Part shown: positions 2-7,536 of the stretch, piece by piece
How positions within the stretch are numbered: the stretch's first letter is position 1
Layout: every line of letters begins with the position of its first letter
NCBI GenBank assembly: GCA_937893945.1
Contig: CALCTA010000107.1
Coordinates: forward strand, 1 to 44,940
Reading direction: 5' to 3'
From: an uncultured Clostridia bacterium
GTDB lineage: Bacteria > Bacillota > Clostridia > Oscillospirales > CAG-272
DNA: 44,940 nucleotides
Translations under genes and position numbers: made by a program
The notes under the pieces: generated by a model
The model's database searches: none
What the model saw: only the letters and a program-made list of their open reading frames with translations
Told to the model about the DNA's origin: nothing

Positions 2-868
2 AGAAGAACGCTCAAGAGCAATACCGAATACTATTCGCCAAACATAGTTTGCTCAGACAGATACGTATTGGTCTATGACAGTGCTTCGTCGGCGTTCTCG
101 GTATATAATTCATTCTCAAAGGTATATAACGAGCGTCTTTCGAGTCCGATAACCGATGCTTGCTTTGGCTCTGACGGCTCGTTTGCGGTAGCAACAAAGA
201 ACGAGGACAGCCAATCGGTAATATATCTCTACGGCAAGGATATAAAGCTTCGCGGAGATATAAGCGAGAGTAAGTATATCTTTGATATGGCGATAGGAGA
301 GGGCGGTGAACGCTTCTGCACGCTTACCTATCAAGCAGGAAGCGGAAAGGGAATGACAACGCTCAATCTTTACAATATCAAGAGCTCGGAGAACTCCGGA
401 AAGCTTGAGAGCATTGATATAGACGGCGAATTTCCTATAGGCTGCGCTTATCTCGACAACGGCAGAATAGCAGTCCTTACCAATCTGGCTATAAGAATAT
501 ATGATAAGGATCTTGACGAAAAAGAGAAGCATACCTTCTACGATGCCAATATCAGAGCCTTCAGGACAGGTGTTGAAGGAATATCGGTGGTTGTAAGCTC
601 GGATGCCGAGAAGAAGGTCATTGCCTATAACGAAAAGGGCGAATTCGCTTATGAGGATGACCTTGGCGAAAACGTCTCTGCAATAGAGCAGTGCGACGGT
701 TACCTCTTTTTGCGTACAGCCTCGGGTGTCATAAGGATAGATATGGACAATAACGAAAGAGAATTTCTCCCCTCGGAAAGCGGAAAAATGCTTATATACG
801 GCAGCGATACCGCGATGGTCTGCGGAGAAGCAAAGGCGGAATATCTCGTGTTTGGAAAAGACCGCTGA
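2..868 (+). CDS. Hypothetical beta-strand-rich repeat protein, 5'-truncated by the window edge
   Basis: The reading frame is open from position 2 with no stop upstream of the TTG at 68, and the stop is at 866-868. The repetitive G/D-rich beta-like segments carry no catalytic motif I recognise. Confidence 0.55.
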   Translation, partial: RRTLKSNTEYYSPNIVCSDRYVLVYDSASSAFSVYNSFSKVYNERLSSPITDACFGSDGSFAVATKNEDSQSVIYLYGKDIKLRGDISESKYIFDMAIGEGGERFCTLTYQAGSGKGMTTLNLYNIKSSENSGKLESIDIDGEFPIGCAYLDNGRIAVLTNLAIRIYDKDLDEKEKHTFYDANIRAFRTGVEGISVVVSSDAEKKVIAYNEKGEFAYEDDLGENVSAIEQCDGYLFLRTASGVIRIDMDNNEREFLPSESGKMLIYGSDTAMVCGEAKAEYLVFGKDR

Positions 869-913
869 GCCGCGATTGCGGTACAATAAAAGTTTAAGGA
901 CGGATTCTTTGAA

Positions 914-1489
914 ATGAAGCTGAAAAATATCCCTAATATTTTATCAATAATACGAATTTTCCTTGTGTTTGTTTTCGTATTCGTATTTTTTGTGTTGGAC
1001 TCTCCAATAGGTGCGTTGATTGTTTTCTTGGTGGCAGGCGCTACAGACATAGTTGACGGATACCTCGCGAGAAGATTTAATTGGATAACGAATCTCGGAA
1101 AGATACTCGATCCGTTTGCGGATAAGCTTATGCAGTGTACGGCACTAATCTGTCTTTGCATAAAGAGATACGTTCCGCTCTGGTTCATGCTGATCTTTCT
1201 TGCTAAGGAGATAGGAACTTTACTTATAGGTCTTATAGTTATCAGACGCCGTAGCGTAGTCGTGGTCAGCAAATGGTACGGTAAGGCGGCTGTATGCCTC
1301 TTCTATCTGACTATATTCTTCTCCATAGTTTTCAGCGACTTCCTCGTAGAAAATCCCATTATCAGTGTACTTATGTTTGGCTTTGCGGCACTTTTTGCGC
1401 TTTGCTCATTCGCCGCATATATCAAGCATTATTCCAAGTTGAAGAAAGAAGAGATAGACAAGGGAACTATCCGAAAGGTAATAAAATAA
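914..1489 (+). CDS. pgsA: CDP-diacylglycerol--glycerol-3-phosphate 3-phosphatidyltransferase (CDP-alcohol phosphatidyltransferase family)
   Basis: Carries the CDP-alcohol transferase signature DGYLARRFNWITNLGKILDPFADKL (D-G-x2-A-R-x8-G-x3-D-x3-D). The 191-aa protein is multi-TM. AAGGA lies upstream of the ATG. Confidence 0.88.
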   Translation: MKLKNIPNILSIIRIFLVFVFVFVFFVLDSPIGALIVFLVAGATDIVDGYLARRFNWITNLGKILDPFADKLMQCTALICLCIKRYVPLWFMLIFLAKEIGTLLIGLIVIRRRSVVVVSKWYGKAAVCLFYLTIFFSIVFSDFLVENPIISVLMFGFAALFALCSFAAYIKHYSKLKKEEIDKGTIRKVIK

Positions 1490-1516
1490 ATCCGAAAGGG
1501 ATCGGTCGATATATTT

Positions 1517-3826
1517 ATGGTAATGTGTTCAAGATGCCACAAGCGTGTGGCGGTGGTTTTCGTAACCAAATTAGAGAATGGAAATAAGGTCAACGAGGGG
1601 CTTTGCATCAAATGCGCAAAGGATCTCGGTGTTCCGATAGATAATATGCTTGGCGACGTTATGAGCCAGTTTGGACTTTCTCCCGAGCAGGTAGAGGCTA
1701 TGGAGAATGAGTTTGGCGCGATGGTAGAAAAGGGAGAGATCCCCTCTGACAACGACGACCTTGAGGAAGGCGGTGCGCCTGCTATCGATATGCCTCAGCT
1801 CTTTAATAATTCAGGGCTTCCCACAGAGCAGCCAAGCGGCGCTAAAAATAAGAAAAAAGCAAAGGACTCGGGCGAGGAAAAGCCTAAGAAATATAAATTC
1901 CTTGACACCTATTGCCGCAATCTTACAAGAAGAGCGGCTGACGGAAAGCTTGACAGGATAATCGGCAGAGACCGAGAGCTTGAGCGAGTTATACAGATAC
2001 TCTGTCGCCGTCAGAAGAACAACCCCTGCCTTATCGGTGAGCCTGGTGTAGGTAAGACCGCTATAGCAGAGGCTCTCGCGCAGAGAATAGCAGACGGAAG
2101 CGTTCCGTTCAAGCTTCGCGGAAAGCAGATATATCTTGTGGATATGACCGCGCTCGTTGCGGGAACTCAGTTCCGCGGACAGTTTGAGTCAAGAATGATA
2201 GGACTTCTTAACGAGGTCAAGGAAGCGGGAAACGTTATCCTCGTTATCGACGAGGTGCATAATATCGTAGGTATCGGTGATTCCGAGGGAAGTGTTAACG
2301 CTGCAAATATCCTAAAACCCGCTCTCTCTCGCGGAGAGGTAAGGATAATCGGTGCTACCACTCTTAACGAGTACCGTAAGTATATTGAAAAGGATACCGC
2401 GCTTGAGCGCCGCTTTCAGCCTATTACTGTGGCTGAACCCTCTATCGAAGAAAGCGTAAAGATGCTCGAGGGCATCAAGCACTACTACGAGGAGTTCCAC
2501 TCTATCAGAATACCCGACGAGGTAGTAGCAAGAGCGGTTACTCTTTCTGAGAGATATATAACCGACAGATATTTGCCCGATAAAGCCATAGACCTGCTTG
2601 ACGAGGCGGCGTCTCACTTGTCTCTTACAAGCTCTGTGCTTAATGAAACTCAAGAAATACGCGAGCAGCTTATGGAGCTTAAGGATAAAAGGGAAGCACT
2701 TGAGGCAAATACCCCTGCTGATGAAAAGGAGACTCATAAGCGATATGAGGAGATAGCGGGAATAAAATCTCAGGAGATAAAGCTCTCAGAGAAGCTTCGC
2801 GCTCTTGAACCGTCCTGCGACAGCGTTGTGCTTACAGAGGCGGACATCGCAGAGGTCATTGAGGTCTGGACGGGAATTCCCGCGACTGACATAAGCGAGA
2901 ATGAATATGAGCAGATAGATAAGCTCGCGGACCGAATCAAGAAAAAGATAGTCGGTCAGGACGAGGCAGTTATGGCTGTGGCAAGAGCTATAAAGCGCAA
3001 CCGCGCGGGCATCTCCTATAAGCGTAAGCCTGTTTCATTTATCTTTGCGGGACCTACGGGTGTCGGAAAGACCGAGCTTGTCAAAACTCTGGCGGCAGAC
3101 CTTTTTCATTCTCCCGAGACACTTATCAGGCTTGATATGTCCGAGTTTATGGAGAAGCATTCTGTTTCAAGAATAATCGGAGCGCCTCCCGGATACGTCG
3201 GATATGACGAGGCAGGACAGCTTACCGAAAAGATACGCCGCAGACCCTATTCTGTAGTGCTCTTTGACGAGATAGAAAAGGCTCACCCCGACGTTCTCAA
3301 TATCCTTCTTCAGATACTTGACGACGGAAGAATAACCGACGCAAGAGGAAAGACAGTCAATTTTGAGAATACCGTTATAGTTATGACCACCAACGCAGGC
3401 TCTGACAATTCGGGCGCTACCGTAGGCTTCTTCTCTGAGGAAGCGTCTCTCTCCGAGAGTAAGACTATGAAGGCGCTCTCAGGCTTCCTGCGCCCCGAGT
3501 TTATTAACCGAGTAGATGAGATAATAACCTTCCGCTCGCTTGATGAGGCAGACTTTGAAAAAATCGCGCGTATTATGCTTGACGAGCTCAAGAGCGCCCT
3601 CGCGGAGAAGAATATAACCTTTAAGTATTCTCCTGCGGCGGCAGAGTATATCGCGAAGAATTCCTTCTCGCGTAAGTTTGGAGCGAGAAATATGCGCCGC
3701 TTTATCAGAGTGAACGTTGAGGACAGACTTGCTGAAAAGATAATCGCAGACTACTCTCGCCGCATAAGCGGAGTAGCACTTGGATATTCCAAGAAAGAAA
3801 ATAAATTAACTGTTGAGTGTATTTGA
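1517..3826 (+). CDS. clpE: ClpE-type class I Clp/Hsp100 AAA+ ATPase with an N-terminal zinc ribbon
   Basis: Two Walker A boxes (GEPGVGKT and GPTGVGKT), a short coiled-coil middle region, and a VGF tripeptide (GATVGFF) matching the ClpP-docking loop. The N-terminus has CSRC-x21-CIKC in place of Clp_N repeats. Confidence 0.85.
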   Translation: MVMCSRCHKRVAVVFVTKLENGNKVNEGLCIKCAKDLGVPIDNMLGDVMSQFGLSPEQVEAMENEFGAMVEKGEIPSDNDDLEEGGAPAIDMPQLFNNSGLPTEQPSGAKNKKKAKDSGEEKPKKYKFLDTYCRNLTRRAADGKLDRIIGRDRELERVIQILCRRQKNNPCLIGEPGVGKTAIAEALAQRIADGSVPFKLRGKQIYLVDMTALVAGTQFRGQFESRMIGLLNEVKEAGNVILVIDEVHNIVGIGDSEGSVNAANILKPALSRGEVRIIGATTLNEYRKYIEKDTALERRFQPITVAEPSIEESVKMLEGIKHYYEEFHSIRIPDEVVARAVTLSERYITDRYLPDKAIDLLDEAASHLSLTSSVLNETQEIREQLMELKDKREALEANTPADEKETHKRYEEIAGIKSQEIKLSEKLRALEPSCDSVVLTEADIAEVIEVWTGIPATDISENEYEQIDKLADRIKKKIVGQDEAVMAVARAIKRNRAGISYKRKPVSFIFAGPTGVGKTELVKTLAADLFHSPETLIRLDMSEFMEKHSVSRIIGAPPGYVGYDEAGQLTEKIRRRPYSVVLFDEIEKAHPDVLNILLQILDDGRITDARGKTVNFENTVIVMTTNAGSDNSGATVGFFSEEASLSESKTMKALSGFLRPEFINRVDEIITFRSLDEADFEKIARIMLDELKSALAEKNITFKYSPAAAEYIAKNSFSRKFGARNMRRFIRVNVEDRLAEKIIADYSRRISGVALGYSKKENKLTVECI

Positions 3827-3828
3827 TA

Positions 3829-6585
3829 ATGAACGAAAAGTGGTTTGATCTATCGGTCGAGGAGATCGAGAAAAAGCTTAAGACCAACGCCGCCTCGGGA
3901 CTTTCTCCCAAGGCGGCTCGTTCCCGCGCGAGTATGCATAAAAAGGACGAGCCCTTCTTTACGGTAAAGAAAAGAAGGATAGATAAGCTCATTTTAGAGC
4001 TGTTTTCAGACATTTTTCTCGTCCTGCTTACGCTTCTCGCGATTTTTTCGCTCTTTTTTGAGGGAGATGCTTTTATTGGAAGCGCGATCCTCATAGTAAT
4101 TGTTATCAATTTGCTCTGGTCGCTGTTTTTGTATTACCGAGACAGACGCGGACTTGAGTCAATGTCGGATTTCTTTGCTCCCACAGCACGCGTAATACGC
4201 GGCGGAAAGCTTTATATAGCCGATTACAGAGACGTAGTCGAGGGCGACGTGATACTTATAGAAAAGGGCGATATCCTCGGTTGCGACGCGCGCCTCGTTC
4301 ATTCGGATAAGCTTACCGTCAGAATGAAGGTCGATAAAAAGACCGAGAAGCTTCTTGAAAAATATGCGAGTGGTGCTCTAAGACCCGACGAGATATATGC
4401 GGAAAATATGGTAAATATGGTTCACGCAGGCTCGGTAGTCGCAAGCGGAAGCGGAAGAGCGATCGTTACCTCGATAGGCAAATATACCTACCTTGGCGCT
4501 ATGACGGGCGGAATTGCGGAGATACCCTCAAAGGAGCTGCCGCGAGGACTTTCGCATCTGAAAAAGGAATGCTCAAAAATAGGAATGATCTTGCTTCTTT
4601 TGACGCTTCCTTTCTGTATATCAAGCTTTCTTTTCGGAAGCTTCCCCGGAGGGAACGTTTCTCTTTCCGAGGCGGTGCTCGTTGCGCTTTCTATAGGCGC
4701 TACGGCGATGCTTTCAAGAGCCTCAAACCTTTTCTGCGGATTTTTCGTGCGACATGTCCGCAGATCTGCTATATCCGAGAACCCCTGCATCATTCGTTCA
4801 CTTGCGGCGTTTGACGCTCTTGCGGATATGGATTACCTATTCTTGCTTGACGGAAGCATCGCCACAGATGGAATACTTCACTTTGATACACTTGCTACCG
4901 CCGACGGTGAGACAAGAAGCTTTGAGCGCGTAGGACAGAGCGCAAATCTGTTGTGCGAGCTGATAGCAATGTACGATAGCGCTCGCTCGTCTTCACTTGC
5001 CATGGGTGTAAGACCAAGTGCGGAGATTGACACGGGTATTGCTGAGTTTATGAGAAAAAGCGCCATTGATACTCATGCGCTTAAGATAAAATACTCCATA
5101 CAGTCCTATCTGCCGGGTATCGACAAGACGGCGAGAGATTCGGTGATATACTTAGATAAGGGAGTAAAAAAGGAGCTTAGCGTCTCCTTGTCAATAAAGC
5201 TTCTTGAAGAATGCCGCTTTGTTACCGTGGCAGGAGCGCCAAAGCCCCTGAGTGCAGAGGGCAGGGAAAATATTTCAAGAAGTATTTCTCAGTACACCTC
5301 TATGGGTAGGCGTGTAGTACTTTTTGCGCTTGGAACGGAGCAGGATAGATGCTTCGTGGGTATGCTTGTTCTTCGCGAAGGAGCAGACACCGAGCTTTCA
5401 AGCGCTATATCGGCAGTCCGAAAGAGCGGTGTCAGCATCATATCCTTTTCAAATTGTAAAGGAAGAAGCAATGCACCCGAGATACCCGATATGCTTAGGC
5501 AAGGAAATCGCGCTTATGCGGCAGACTTTGCGAGAAAAGGACTTCCCGCTGACCATTCATTTGGTAGCTACGACGAATATTGCGGCTTTTCTGCCGAGGA
5601 CATAGCACTTCTCGCAAGGCATGTAAAGTCCAAGGGAAAAGGCTTGATGATTTGCGGATTTACAGACTTTGCCGCTGAGGCTATAGGTGTGGCGGACGTG
5701 TTCGTTTCCTGCGCACCCGTAAGGACGGGAGTTTTCGGACACTTTGACGAGGAGATACGCTCGCTTGAGGTTCCGGGAGAGCAGAGCAGTGCTTCATGCG
5801 ATCAGACCGTCAAGGCTGAGGCAGATATCCTGCTTATGCGCCCGAAGAATAAGAAGGGCGGACTTGCGCCTTTGGCGGTGGCAGTCAGCTCCTGTAGGAT
5901 CGCTTACAGGAATCTCTTTGGATATATCAGATACTTTATATTTGCTTCGCTTATGCGGATAGTGGCTATAGGATTTCCAATGCTTTTTGGACAGATGTCA
6001 GGAGCGGCTATACATCTGCTTCTGCTCGGATTCCTTGCCGATATGGCGGCACTGCTGATCTTTATGAGAGACAACCGACGTGTAGGCGCGGAGAAAAAGA
6101 ATATCAAGAAGGAGCTTCTTGATACGAGCATCACCTCACTTCCCAAAAAGTATCTTCCGCTTACCGCGGCATCCTTGCTTGGCGCTGTGCTTACCTTGCT
6201 CATTCCTAATCTTATTGGACTTCTCGATATCTTTGGAAACTACATCTATAAAGCAGAATATACCTTTACAGCTCTTTTACTGCTTCAGCTCTCGCTGTTT
6301 ATATGCGTTTACGTAAAGGATATTCTCAGCAAGGCGCAGATGAGAAAGCTGTTTACCAATAAGGTGTTTATAATTGAGCTTGCCGTGGCATTCGTGCTTG
6401 TGCTTATATGCTTCCTTACTCCGCTGGGTAATCTGTTCGGACTTGTGAACAATCCTATCGTTTATCTTATTGCTTCATTCTTGCCTTCAATAGCGTTTTT
6501 GATATGCTTCTACGCTATGTCTTTCCCAAAGAAAAAGAAAACCGGAGAAGAGAAGAGCAAAAAGATGAGAAAAAAGCAAAAATAA
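3829..6585 (+). CDS. P-type (P2-like) cation ATPase homologue with degenerate catalytic motifs, probably a pseudo-ATPase
   Basis: Has a Cation_ATPase_N-like start (LSVEEIEKKL..GLSPKAA), an actuator-like GDVILIEKGDILGCDARL, and about 10 TM segments. TGES is absent, DKTGT reads DGSIA (4849-4863), and GDGVND reads GFTDFA (5656-5673). The ATG at 3829 follows the clpE TGA (3824-3826). The GTG at 3817 in the ORF track is less likely. Confidence 0.8.
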   Translation: MNEKWFDLSVEEIEKKLKTNAASGLSPKAARSRASMHKKDEPFFTVKKRRIDKLILELFSDIFLVLLTLLAIFSLFFEGDAFIGSAILIVIVINLLWSLFLYYRDRRGLESMSDFFAPTARVIRGGKLYIADYRDVVEGDVILIEKGDILGCDARLVHSDKLTVRMKVDKKTEKLLEKYASGALRPDEIYAENMVNMVHAGSVVASGSGRAIVTSIGKYTYLGAMTGGIAEIPSKELPRGLSHLKKECSKIGMILLLLTLPFCISSFLFGSFPGGNVSLSEAVLVALSIGATAMLSRASNLFCGFFVRHVRRSAISENPCIIRSLAAFDALADMDYLFLLDGSIATDGILHFDTLATADGETRSFERVGQSANLLCELIAMYDSARSSSLAMGVRPSAEIDTGIAEFMRKSAIDTHALKIKYSIQSYLPGIDKTARDSVIYLDKGVKKELSVSLSIKLLEECRFVTVAGAPKPLSAEGRENISRSISQYTSMGRRVVLFALGTEQDRCFVGMLVLREGADTELSSAISAVRKSGVSIISFSNCKGRSNAPEIPDMLRQGNRAYAADFARKGLPADHSFGSYDEYCGFSAEDIALLARHVKSKGKGLMICGFTDFAAEAIGVADVFVSCAPVRTGVFGHFDEEIRSLEVPGEQSSASCDQTVKAEADILLMRPKNKKGGLAPLAVAVSSCRIAYRNLFGYIRYFIFASLMRIVAIGFPMLFGQMSGAAIHLLLLGFLADMAALLIFMRDNRRVGAEKKNIKKELLDTSITSLPKKYLPLTAASLLGAVLTLLIPNLIGLLDIFGNYIYKAEYTFTALLLLQLSLFICVYVKDILSKAQMRKLFTNKVFIIELAVAFVLVLICFLTPLGNLFGLVNNPIVYLIASFLPSIAFLICFYAMSFPKKKKTGEEKSKKMRKKQK

Positions 6586-6618
6586 TTGTAAACAATTTGT
6601 TAATTTATAATATCGCAC

Positions 6619-6647
6619 TTGAAAAATATTTACAAGTATGATATAAT
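6619..6647 (+). promoter_or_regulatory. Sigma-A type promoter of rpsB-tsf
   Basis: TTGAAA (6619-6624), an exact 17-nt spacer, then TATAAT (6642-6647). Confidence 0.6.
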
Positions 6648-6798
6648 CAACTGTAATTTGCGTGTCGGCAAAGACTGACCGTGAAAATAATAATACACAC
6701 ACGTTCCATAGTGAGCGATCCGGTGTCGGCGGCAAGCGCGTGCGGTCGATTGGTCGTTGATGGTAACGTGGTGGAAAAAACCGAAGGAGGACATAAAA
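6648..6798 (+). promoter_or_regulatory. Long GC-enriched 5' leader of rpsB, a candidate ribosomal-protein autoregulatory leader
   Basis: About 150 nt separate the -10 box from the rpsB ATG. GTGTCGGC occurs twice (6662-6669 and 6723-6730), and complementary GACCG/CGGTC segments lie at 6677-6681 and 6743-6747. The SD AAGGAGGA is at 6784-6791. Confidence 0.35.
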
Positions 6799-7536
6799 AT
6801 GTCTGTTATTTCTATTAAGCAGTTGCTTGAAGCAGGTGTTCATTTCGGACACCACACAAGAAGATGGAACCCCAAAATGCAGGAGTACATCTTCACCGAG
6901 AGAAACGGTATCTACATCATTGACTTGCAGAAGACCGTTAAGAAGTTTGATGAAGCTTATGCTTTCATCCGTGATATCGCAGCAGAGGGCGGCAATGTTC
7001 TTTTCGTAGGAACAAAGAAGCAGGCAGCTGACGCTATCAAGGAAGAGGCTCTCCGTTGCGGAATGTACTACGTAAACGTACGTTGGCCCGGCGGTATGAT
7101 GACAAACTTCAAGACCATCAAGAAGTCCATCGGCAGACTCAACGCGCTCACGAAGATGCAGGAGGATGGCACATTCGATCTTCTTCCCAAGAAGGAAGTT
7201 GCTGCAAAGCAGAAGGAGATCTTTGACCTCGAGAAGAACTACGGCGGTATCAAGAACATGGATCAGCTTCCCGCTGCTATCTTCATCGTAGATCCCAAGA
7301 AGGAAAGAAACGCAGTTCTTGAGGCTAAGAAGCTTGGTATTCCGGTAGTTGCTATCGTTGACACCAACTGCGATCCTGACGATGCTGATTACGTAATTCC
7401 CGGTAACGATGACGCTATCCGCGCTATCAAGCTTATCTCTTCCGTACTTGCTGATGCAGTTATCGAAGGTAAGCAGGGCGAGCAGCTCACCGAGGCTCCC
7501 GCAGAGAACGCAGAGGCAGAGGCTGACGCTGAGTAA
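6799..7536 (+). CDS. rpsB: 30S ribosomal protein S2
   Basis: [27 protein letters not shown] is the canonical S2 N-terminus. The ATG at 6799 is preceded by AAGGAGGA, so the ORF-track start at 6757 is an upstream extension. Confidence 0.97.

Follow-up and report, generated by a model that had tools for sequence, protein, structure and literature searches.

What might a membrane protein with the build of an ion pump and none of its chemistry be doing behind the gene of a protein unfoldase? The question is raised by a 44,940-nucleotide contig of an uncultured Clostridia bacterium (CALCTA010000107.1 of assembly GCA_937893945.1; the whole stretch is referred to below as the window, and all coordinates in it are on the forward strand). 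An uninterrupted open reading frame at 3829-6585, running from an ATG at 3829 to a TAA at 6583-6585, encodes a 918-residue homologue of the P2-type ATPases, and it begins 2 nt after the stop codon (3824-3826) of a ClpE-like gene, the junction reading TGA-TA-ATG (3824-3831). The reading frame itself, Pfam and NCBIfam matches, alignments, an AlphaFold model, Foldseek and a family profile all point to a catalytically dead descendant of the P2A-type (Ca2+-pump-like) ATPases, hereafter called the pseudo-pump, which we tentatively regard as a non-pumping membrane partner of the ClpE-ClpP protease.

A sequence-only reading of the locus had described every catalytic signature of the protein as degenerate, and had named as its own weak point the possibility that the motifs were mis-registered and that an intact DKTGT or TGES lay elsewhere. 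The motif register was checked in three ways: by HMMER alignment to the Listeria pump LMCA1, by a MAFFT alignment of the pseudo-pump with the canonical paralogue from the same genome, 21 orthologues from the genus and 9 database homologues, and by a regular-expression scan over the whole protein. The HMMER alignment places KKTE under TGES and D.GSIA under DKTGT, and against the canonical paralogue the pseudo-pump is without TGES, PEGL, DKTGT, KGAPE, DPxR, TGD and GDGVND. In the alignments the former TGES dephosphorylation loop reads KKTE (4336-4347, in the segment DKKTEK), and the former phosphorylation site reads LDGSIATDG (4846-4872) for (S)DKTGTLTxN, with DGSIA at 4849-4863 and its Asp as residue D341. 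KGAPE has become SLSIK and DPxR has become EGAD, the former TGD motif reads ISFSNC (5440-5457, with FSNC for TGD), and the former hinge GDGVND reads GFTDFA (5656-5673). No GDG, TGD, KGA, PE.L or DP.R and no displaced copy of a motif was met in the scan of the whole protein, the sole DKT (residue 432, in the N-like domain) and the sole TGE (residue 905, in the C-terminal tail) both being out of place; the intact copies that would have pointed to a wrong register were thus found neither by the two alignments nor by the scan. The peptides and coordinates given in the sequence-only reading were all exact when read again in the window, including LTVRMKVDKKTEKL at 4312-4353 (the segment aligned with TGES), GDVILIEKGDILGCDARL at 4243-4296 and SGSGRAIVTSIG at 4444-4479. 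Judged from these columns, the residues for ATP binding, for formation of the aspartyl phosphate and for dephosphorylation are all lost, and neither ATP hydrolysis nor an acyl-phosphate intermediate is predicted for the pseudo-pump.

The loss is common to the family. A profile built from 25 diverse members was searched against 1.84 billion cluster representatives (50% identity), and among the best 150 matches, all scoring at least 553 bits, 148 were inspected; none of the 148 carries a DKTGT, a GDGxND or a hinge TGD, and the pseudo-pumps therefore form a large and uniformly dead family. The TGES position is variable across its members, and a TGE[SNT] string occurs anywhere in the protein in only 10 of the 148. 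Within the clade of the window's protein, the DKTGT site has the form LDG[SCAG]xxTDG, the TGD is FSNC-like and GDGVND is replaced by GF[ST][DE][FY]A, while PEGL appears as LSR or SQL and KGAPE and DPxR are unrecognisable. The Asp kept in DGSIA, to which the earlier reading had drawn attention, is indeed present in this clade but not in the whole family, as the old phosphorylation residue is a Gly in many members (LLG[RH]xxx[ST]DG) and only the following [ST]DG is found family-wide; since the Asp is not conserved across the family, it gives no hint of residual phosphorylation. The wider claim that all of the signatures are degenerate is borne out by the motif columns, the motifs being absent in every relative examined.

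The genome also encodes a canonical P2A-type pump outside the window (G000 C159:6884-9550), in which TGES, PEGL, DKTGT, KGAP, DPVR, MITGD and GDGVND are all present. With a pump that has all catalytic and ion-site motifs in the same genome, the pseudo-pump is therefore an extra paralogue and not the sole Ca2+-pump homologue of the organism.

The predicted structure and the Pfam matches together describe a P-type ATPase architecture, with actuator (A), phosphorylation (P) and nucleotide-binding (N) domains and a membrane domain of ten helices. The Pfam models E1-E2_ATPase (56.9 bits, cut-off 28.1, residues 117-289) and Cation_ATPase_N (21.6 bits, cut-off 20.4) are detected, Cation_ATPase_C stays at 19.8 bits under its cut-off of 27.3, and the HAD/Hydrolase and Cation_ATPase (N-domain) models give no detection. 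The nearest NCBIfam models are those of the PMR1-type and SERCA-type Ca2+ pumps, with P3A models weaker than P2A ones, and the scores lie about 10-fold under the equivalog cut-offs (TIGR01522, 82.7 against 798.3 bits; TIGR01116, 78.4 against 703.4 bits), so that the protein reaches neither equivalog. LMCA1 is the best sequence match in the PDB (HMMER, E 3.8e-26). The AlphaFold2 model, calculated from a 25-sequence alignment, has a predicted local distance difference test score (pLDDT) of 84.2 and a predicted template-modelling score (pTM) of 0.82 and consists of about 10 transmembrane (TM) helices and all three cytoplasmic domains, residues 633-653 being the sole long stretch of low confidence (pLDDT <50). 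Foldseek matched the model to full-length P2-type pumps only, with E-values down to 2.6e-36 and the highest template-modelling scores, 0.69-0.73, to E1 states of the Na,K-ATPase, SERCA and LMCA1 (8jfz, 4h1w, 9evc). The P2-type layout with about ten TM helices that had been recognised from the letters is thereby upheld, and the full P2 fold, the P and N domains included, is predicted with confidence. The best-conserved part of the family is the core of the A domain (approximately residues 117-235, 4177-4533), which is covered by the E1-E2_ATPase match and contains the columns R124, G126, G139, D140, G147, D153 and G207 that are invariant in an alignment of 25 diverse members (alignment A1). G677/G678 and R710 are nearly invariant in the same alignment, and no stretch of 7-10 columns is conserved in it.

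The nearly invariant R710 belongs to a remodelled ion site. Of the residues that make up the site in the P2A Ca2+-ATPases (M4 Glu, M5 Asn/Glu, M6 Asn/Thr/Asp and M8 Glu), only the M6 Asp is kept, as Asp738 (6040-6042, the NLVTD column; Asp in 112 and Glu in 20 of 145 representatives). Arg710 in M5 (5956-5958) takes the place of a Ca-binding Glu, the position being Arg in 121 and Lys in 8 of the 145, and the canonical SNMSEV has become xQxxR in the family, with S..R in the window itself, where Ser stands for the consensus Gln. Gln820 in M8 (6286-6288) likewise replaces the canonical Glu (Gln in 83, His in 21 of 145), and the M4 Glu of PEGL is retained in about half of the family and lost in the window's clade (LSR). 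A further family-specific feature is an insertion in the P domain (approximately residues 629-656, 5713-5796; located by pLDDT and alignment), which replaces the GxAMG-xGTD segment and is predicted to be disordered and acidic in the window's clade; this segment measures 4 residues in the canonical paralogue and about 29 in most of the 145 representatives aligned. With R710, D738 and the insertion at 629-656, the window's protein carries the family signature of an M5 Q..R (with Ser for its Gln), an M6 Asp and a long P-domain segment. Arg(M5) and Asp(M6) probably form an intramembrane pair that fills the former ion site and is self-neutralised without a cation, and the TM bundle may therefore be stable in the absence of a bound ion. 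Such a pair would recall that of the P3A plasma-membrane H+-ATPases, AHA2 (Arg655/Asp684) and Pma1, where the M5 Arg faces the M6 Asp and is regarded as a built-in counter-ion; these enzymes keep all catalytic motifs and do pump, and the likeness of the pseudo-pump to them is read from alignment columns only. A cation channel, one of the roles that had been suggested for the protein, is disfavoured because Arg, Gln and His replace the ion-site residues.

The C-terminal tails of the family vary. In nine members (P0161, P0162, P0166, P0171, P0174, P0177, P0179, P0186 and P0196) they extend over approximately 120-370 residues and are acidic, Pro/Ser-rich and apparently disordered, and the tail of the window's protein is short and Lys-rich. 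No fusion that would hint at a partner was found, as members of 1043-1286 residues bear disordered acidic tails only and the eight scanned contain no extra Pfam domain.

Purifying selection acts on every domain of the pseudo-pump. The ratio of nonsynonymous to synonymous substitution rates (dN/dS) against the closest orthologue is 0.079 at a dS of 0.99, dS being near saturation for all other pairs, and seven segments taken one by one, among them the degenerate P and N-like domains, give values of 0.04-0.10; the clpE control gives 0.022. Of 24 genomes sampled within the GTDB genus, 23 have an intact full-length orthologue, with identities from 86% down to 34%, and more distant relatives of 20-30% identity occur in many other genera, with reading frames intact down to about 20%. 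Hundreds of intact homologues, mostly of about 900-930 residues, come from independent metagenomes, and a scan with the single protein added five true relatives, all from metagenome-assembled genomes (sheep and goat colon, a binchicken-labelled record, and a 'Clostridia' and an 'Eubacteriales' bacterium). The statement that the gene is not a decaying pseudogene is therefore upheld by the intact frame, by the orthologues and by the low dN/dS. Pseudo-pumps and real pumps across the order were compared by a profile of the P and N domains alone (A2), with which canonical pumps score about 110-125 bits and the genome's own paralogue 114; the separation is unclean, and only matches above about 135 bits can be called pseudo-pumps, all of which fall in families f1, f8 and f17. 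A match of this profile in family f19 was rejected, as it proved on inspection to be a canonical pump. A single in-frame stop lies within the pseudo-pump match of three relatives, G003:C46 (TAG), G219:C19 (TAA) and G073:C68 (TGA); the main reading frame in G003 still spans 905 residues, and the three stops could represent occasional loss, sequencing errors or a shifted start.

What the protein is kept for may be indicated by its neighbour. The upstream gene (1517-3826, 769 residues; Pfam AAA, AAA_lid_9, AAA_2 and ClpB_D2-small) has the layout of the ClpE subfamily of Hsp100 unfoldases, with an N-terminal four-Cys zinc ribbon (CSRC-x21-CIKC), two AAA+ modules, a short M-domain and a ...TVGFF... 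segment corresponding to the VGF loop for ClpP, zinc binding and ClpP docking both being predicted from the translation; no NCBIfam equivalog is reached by it. ClpP, ClpX and a second protein of ClpC type are also encoded by the genome. In all 22 loci of the genus the pseudo-pump gene directly follows clpE, as it does in 17 of the 18 loci that come from other genera of the family, in one locus of a second family that was met by chance, and in all nine further degenerate homologues (f1, f8, f17); the sum is 49 of 50 loci, spread over three GTDB families within one order of Clostridia. A canonical ATPase recovered in the same search (G392) does not adjoin clpE. Among the 37 loci in which the distance from stop to start could be measured, 28 have -4 to +6 nt and nine have 9-52 nt. 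The near-zero spacing is, as far as gene layout can tell, a stronger argument for coupled synthesis than the adjacency, and translational coupling from clpE to the pseudo-pump across the 2-nt gap is probable; no strong Shine-Dalgarno sequence was seen at the junction. Co-expression with the unfoldase gene, proposed from the window, is supported by the position of the gene and by the short gap.

Motif loss, intact orthologues, low dN/dS, the full fold and the linkage to clpE all support a pseudo-enzyme that is kept for a role independent of transport, and for the more specific role, whether scaffold, sensor or ClpE partner, we infer from the same material that the pseudo-pump could be an anchor, regulator or sensor for ClpE-ClpP in the membrane. 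We prefer this partnership as a working model, with slightly less than even confidence. In the model ClpE and the pseudo-pump would be made together by translational coupling, and the pseudo-pump would not pump, its former ion site being occupied by the Arg-Asp pair. The large cytoplasmic headpiece with the disordered P-domain loop would be re-used as a platform for protein interactions, by which ClpE, alone or with ClpP, would be anchored or regulated, so that the unfoldase is placed or tuned at the membrane, and the pump-like conformational scaffold may respond to the state of the membrane, of protons or of cations. The ClpE-ClpP of Enterococcus faecalis forms clusters that have been proposed to confine proteolysis in space (PMC13125188), and a dedicated membrane tether would be compatible with such confinement. 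A more elaborate version, which we consider doubtful, makes the dead pump a membrane receptor: the scaffold would sense a membrane, proton or cation signal, the headpiece would dock the ClpE hexamer, and ClpE-ClpP would be recruited or switched at the membrane, giving a signal-gated, FtsH-like membrane proteolysis built from a fossil ion pump.

Several observations weigh against a partnership with ClpE. The characterised ClpE of E. faecalis is autonomous, its N-domain selects the substrates, and it works without an adaptor or partner (PMC13125188). The Arg-Asp salt bridge is deduced from alignment columns only, and the pseudo-pump evolves about four times faster than ClpE. One pseudo-pump (locus L034, G041:C103, 2001-4781) follows a gene for a PstS-like periplasmic binding protein and not clpE; the G041 genome is 72% complete, and a rearrangement or misassembly is possible at this locus. 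ClpE orthologues occur without a pseudo-pump in at least two other families (G033, G038). In the window clpE is the third gene of a conserved block, preceded by a gene for a DUF5711 protein (2-868, its 5' end cut by the window; Pfam DUF5711, E 1.3e-19) and by one for a PgsA-like CDP-alcohol phosphatidyltransferase (914-1489, 27 nt upstream of clpE; Pfam CDP-OH_P_transf, E 5.1e-36), and this DUF5711-pgsA-clpE order is present also in G033, which has no pseudo-pump, while the whole neighbourhood from DUF5711 through pgsA and clpE to rpsB-tsf is syntenic across the order. As the region is generally rigid, the adjacency is weaker evidence than 49 of 50 suggests, and it may in part reflect that rigidity rather than a functional pair.

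The same observations lend themselves to a role in the membrane that has nothing to do with ClpE, in which the pseudo-pump would serve a structural purpose, sense protons, cations or lipids, or provide a passive conductance across its remodelled TM core, and would adjoin clpE only because its gene was inserted into a stable and highly expressed block. Such a role is possible, if on balance improbable. It would account for the conservation of DUF5711-pgsA-clpE where the pseudo-pump is missing, for ClpE standing alone in other families and for the one pseudo-pump that does not adjoin clpE; a proton or cation might still be bound by the M6 Asp and, in the roughly half of the family that retains it, by the M4 Glu, and a lipid-synthesis gene, pgsA, belongs to the same cluster. 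Against it stands the gap of -4 to +6 nt in 28 of 37 junctions, which points to coupled synthesis more than to simple closeness and persists at about 20% protein identity, and a cation path in particular sits poorly with the replacement of the M5 Glu by Arg and of the M8 Glu by Gln or His.

Coupled synthesis would also fit if the pseudo-pump were a dedicated substrate or decoy of ClpE-ClpP, made together with the protease and degraded by it, its level reporting or buffering ClpE activity. Disordered segments are typical sites at which AAA+ unfoldases engage their substrates, and both the family-wide disordered P-domain insertion and the long, disordered acidic C-terminal tails of some members would serve. 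A protein of 900 residues and ten TM helices would, however, be an expensive decoy, and purifying selection throughout its domains is more in keeping with a working scaffold than with the carrier of a degradation tag; we know of no precedent for ClpE and consider this explanation unlikely. Far less probable still is a transporter that remains energy-driven through a non-canonical chemistry, with another nucleophile or nucleotide pocket. The complete fold would permit it, as would the Asp that the window's clade keeps at or next to the old phosphorylation position, but all four HAD-type motifs and the adenine and phosphate contacts of the N domain (KGAPE, the FDSGRK region, DPxR, TGD) are gone, TGES is missing, neither a HAD nor an N-domain profile matches, and the Asp is a Gly in many members. 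That the gene was inactivated recently, or is an artefact of assembly or annotation, as the single in-frame stops in G003, G219 and G073 might suggest, is refuted by the homologue searches and the dN/dS of 0.08, together with the intact 918-codon frame, hundreds of intact homologues of similar length and conserved family-specific residues.

Among characterised proteins the bacterial P2A Ca2+-ATPases (LMCA1, PDB 9euq/6zhf/9evc) and their relatives PMR1/SPCA and SERCA are the closest to the pseudo-pump, with which they have in common the domain order, the topology of ten TM helices, the fold (template-modelling score about 0.7), the core of the A domain and the Cation_ATPase_N helix. The pseudo-pump differs from them in being without the catalytic motifs, in the M5 Glu to Arg and M8 Glu to Gln replacements and the clade's loss of the M4 Glu, in its lengthened P-domain segment, and in the coupling of its gene to clpE, unlike that of the canonical pump on C159. 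Where a degenerate P-type module has been retained for a different task, the nearest precedent found is that of the alveolate guanylate cyclases (P4GC, in Cryptosporidium, and the haemosporidian P4GC-beta), in whose P4-ATPase module the Asp of DKTGT and the A-domain Glu are altered or lost, while the ATPase body still serves the cyclase as an indispensable part with a non-pumping or regulatory task (PMC13466520). This module is a eukaryotic P4 flippase, covalently fused to its partner and devoid of some motifs, whereas the pseudo-pump is bacterial, of P2 type, a separate polypeptide and devoid of all. The layout of the upstream gene matches that of ClpE in ClpE-ClpP of the Firmicutes, but its pairing with a dead pump is limited to some lineages of Clostridia. 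In the literature on dead P-type ATPases, FUPA families, ClpE partners and DUF5711, no description of the pseudo-pump family or of a membrane partner for ClpE was found.

P-type ATPases are defined by their phosphoenzyme chemistry, and our literature searches brought up no report of a large bacterial branch in which selection preserves the complete machine without that chemistry. Family members carry public names such as 'magnesium-transporting ATPase (P-type)' or 'cation-transporting P-type ATPase' (P0011, P0015, P0047, P0060), and hundreds of metagenome proteins annotated in this way are almost certainly not pumps, a systematic mis-annotation that skews the transporter inventories drawn up for gut Clostridia. 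Should the tie to ClpE prove functional, ClpE, a protein whose biology is still poorly understood, would gain its first membrane partner, and the pseudo-pump would illustrate the reuse of a transporter scaffold for regulation. New here are the family-wide signature of M5 Arg, M6 Asp and M8 Gln/His, the restriction of the site Asp to a clade, the lengthened P-domain segment, the dN/dS of the separate domains, the distribution over three families, and the synteny of DUF5711, pgsA and clpE even where the pseudo-pump is missing.

Downstream of the pseudo-pump, a promoter-like site precedes rpsB-tsf. The site (TTGAAA-17-TATAAT, TG-extended, 6619-6647) matches the consensus at 11 of 12 positions, the best match in 800-7000, and as a consensus match it suggests that rpsB, which encodes ribosomal protein S2 (6799-7536; Pfam Ribosomal_S2, E 4.5e-101), has a promoter of its own. 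The stretch from 6585 to 6619 showed no hairpin resembling a terminator. The gene rpsB follows the pseudo-pump in all 21 other loci of the genus and in 10 of 18 loci from other genera. Upstream of clpE no CtsR operator was found, and the four weak matches elsewhere in the window compare with 3.7 expected by chance.

The ClpE of the window ends in ...LTVECI (3805-3823), and at the clpE 3' ends of this gene and of L002-L061 most ClpE proteins paired with a pseudo-pump have a penultimate Cys (ECI, DCM, VCK and similar). The residue is missing in the three unpaired ClpE proteins seen and in several paired ones, a loose correlation that may be phylogenetic, and as a marker of paired ClpE it was dropped, being common but not strict. 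Of 12 further genomes, 11 have the DUF5711 gene and 5 have pgsA upstream of clpE. Loci with the DUF5711-(PgsA-like)-clpE block are, besides the window (2-3826), L045-L048, L061-L071 and L073, and the PgsA-like gene precedes clpE within the genus (L045-L048), in a further f1 genus (L063) and in f8, f17 and f10, so that the DUF5711 protein and a gene of lipid synthesis are persistently linked to ClpE across several GTDB families.

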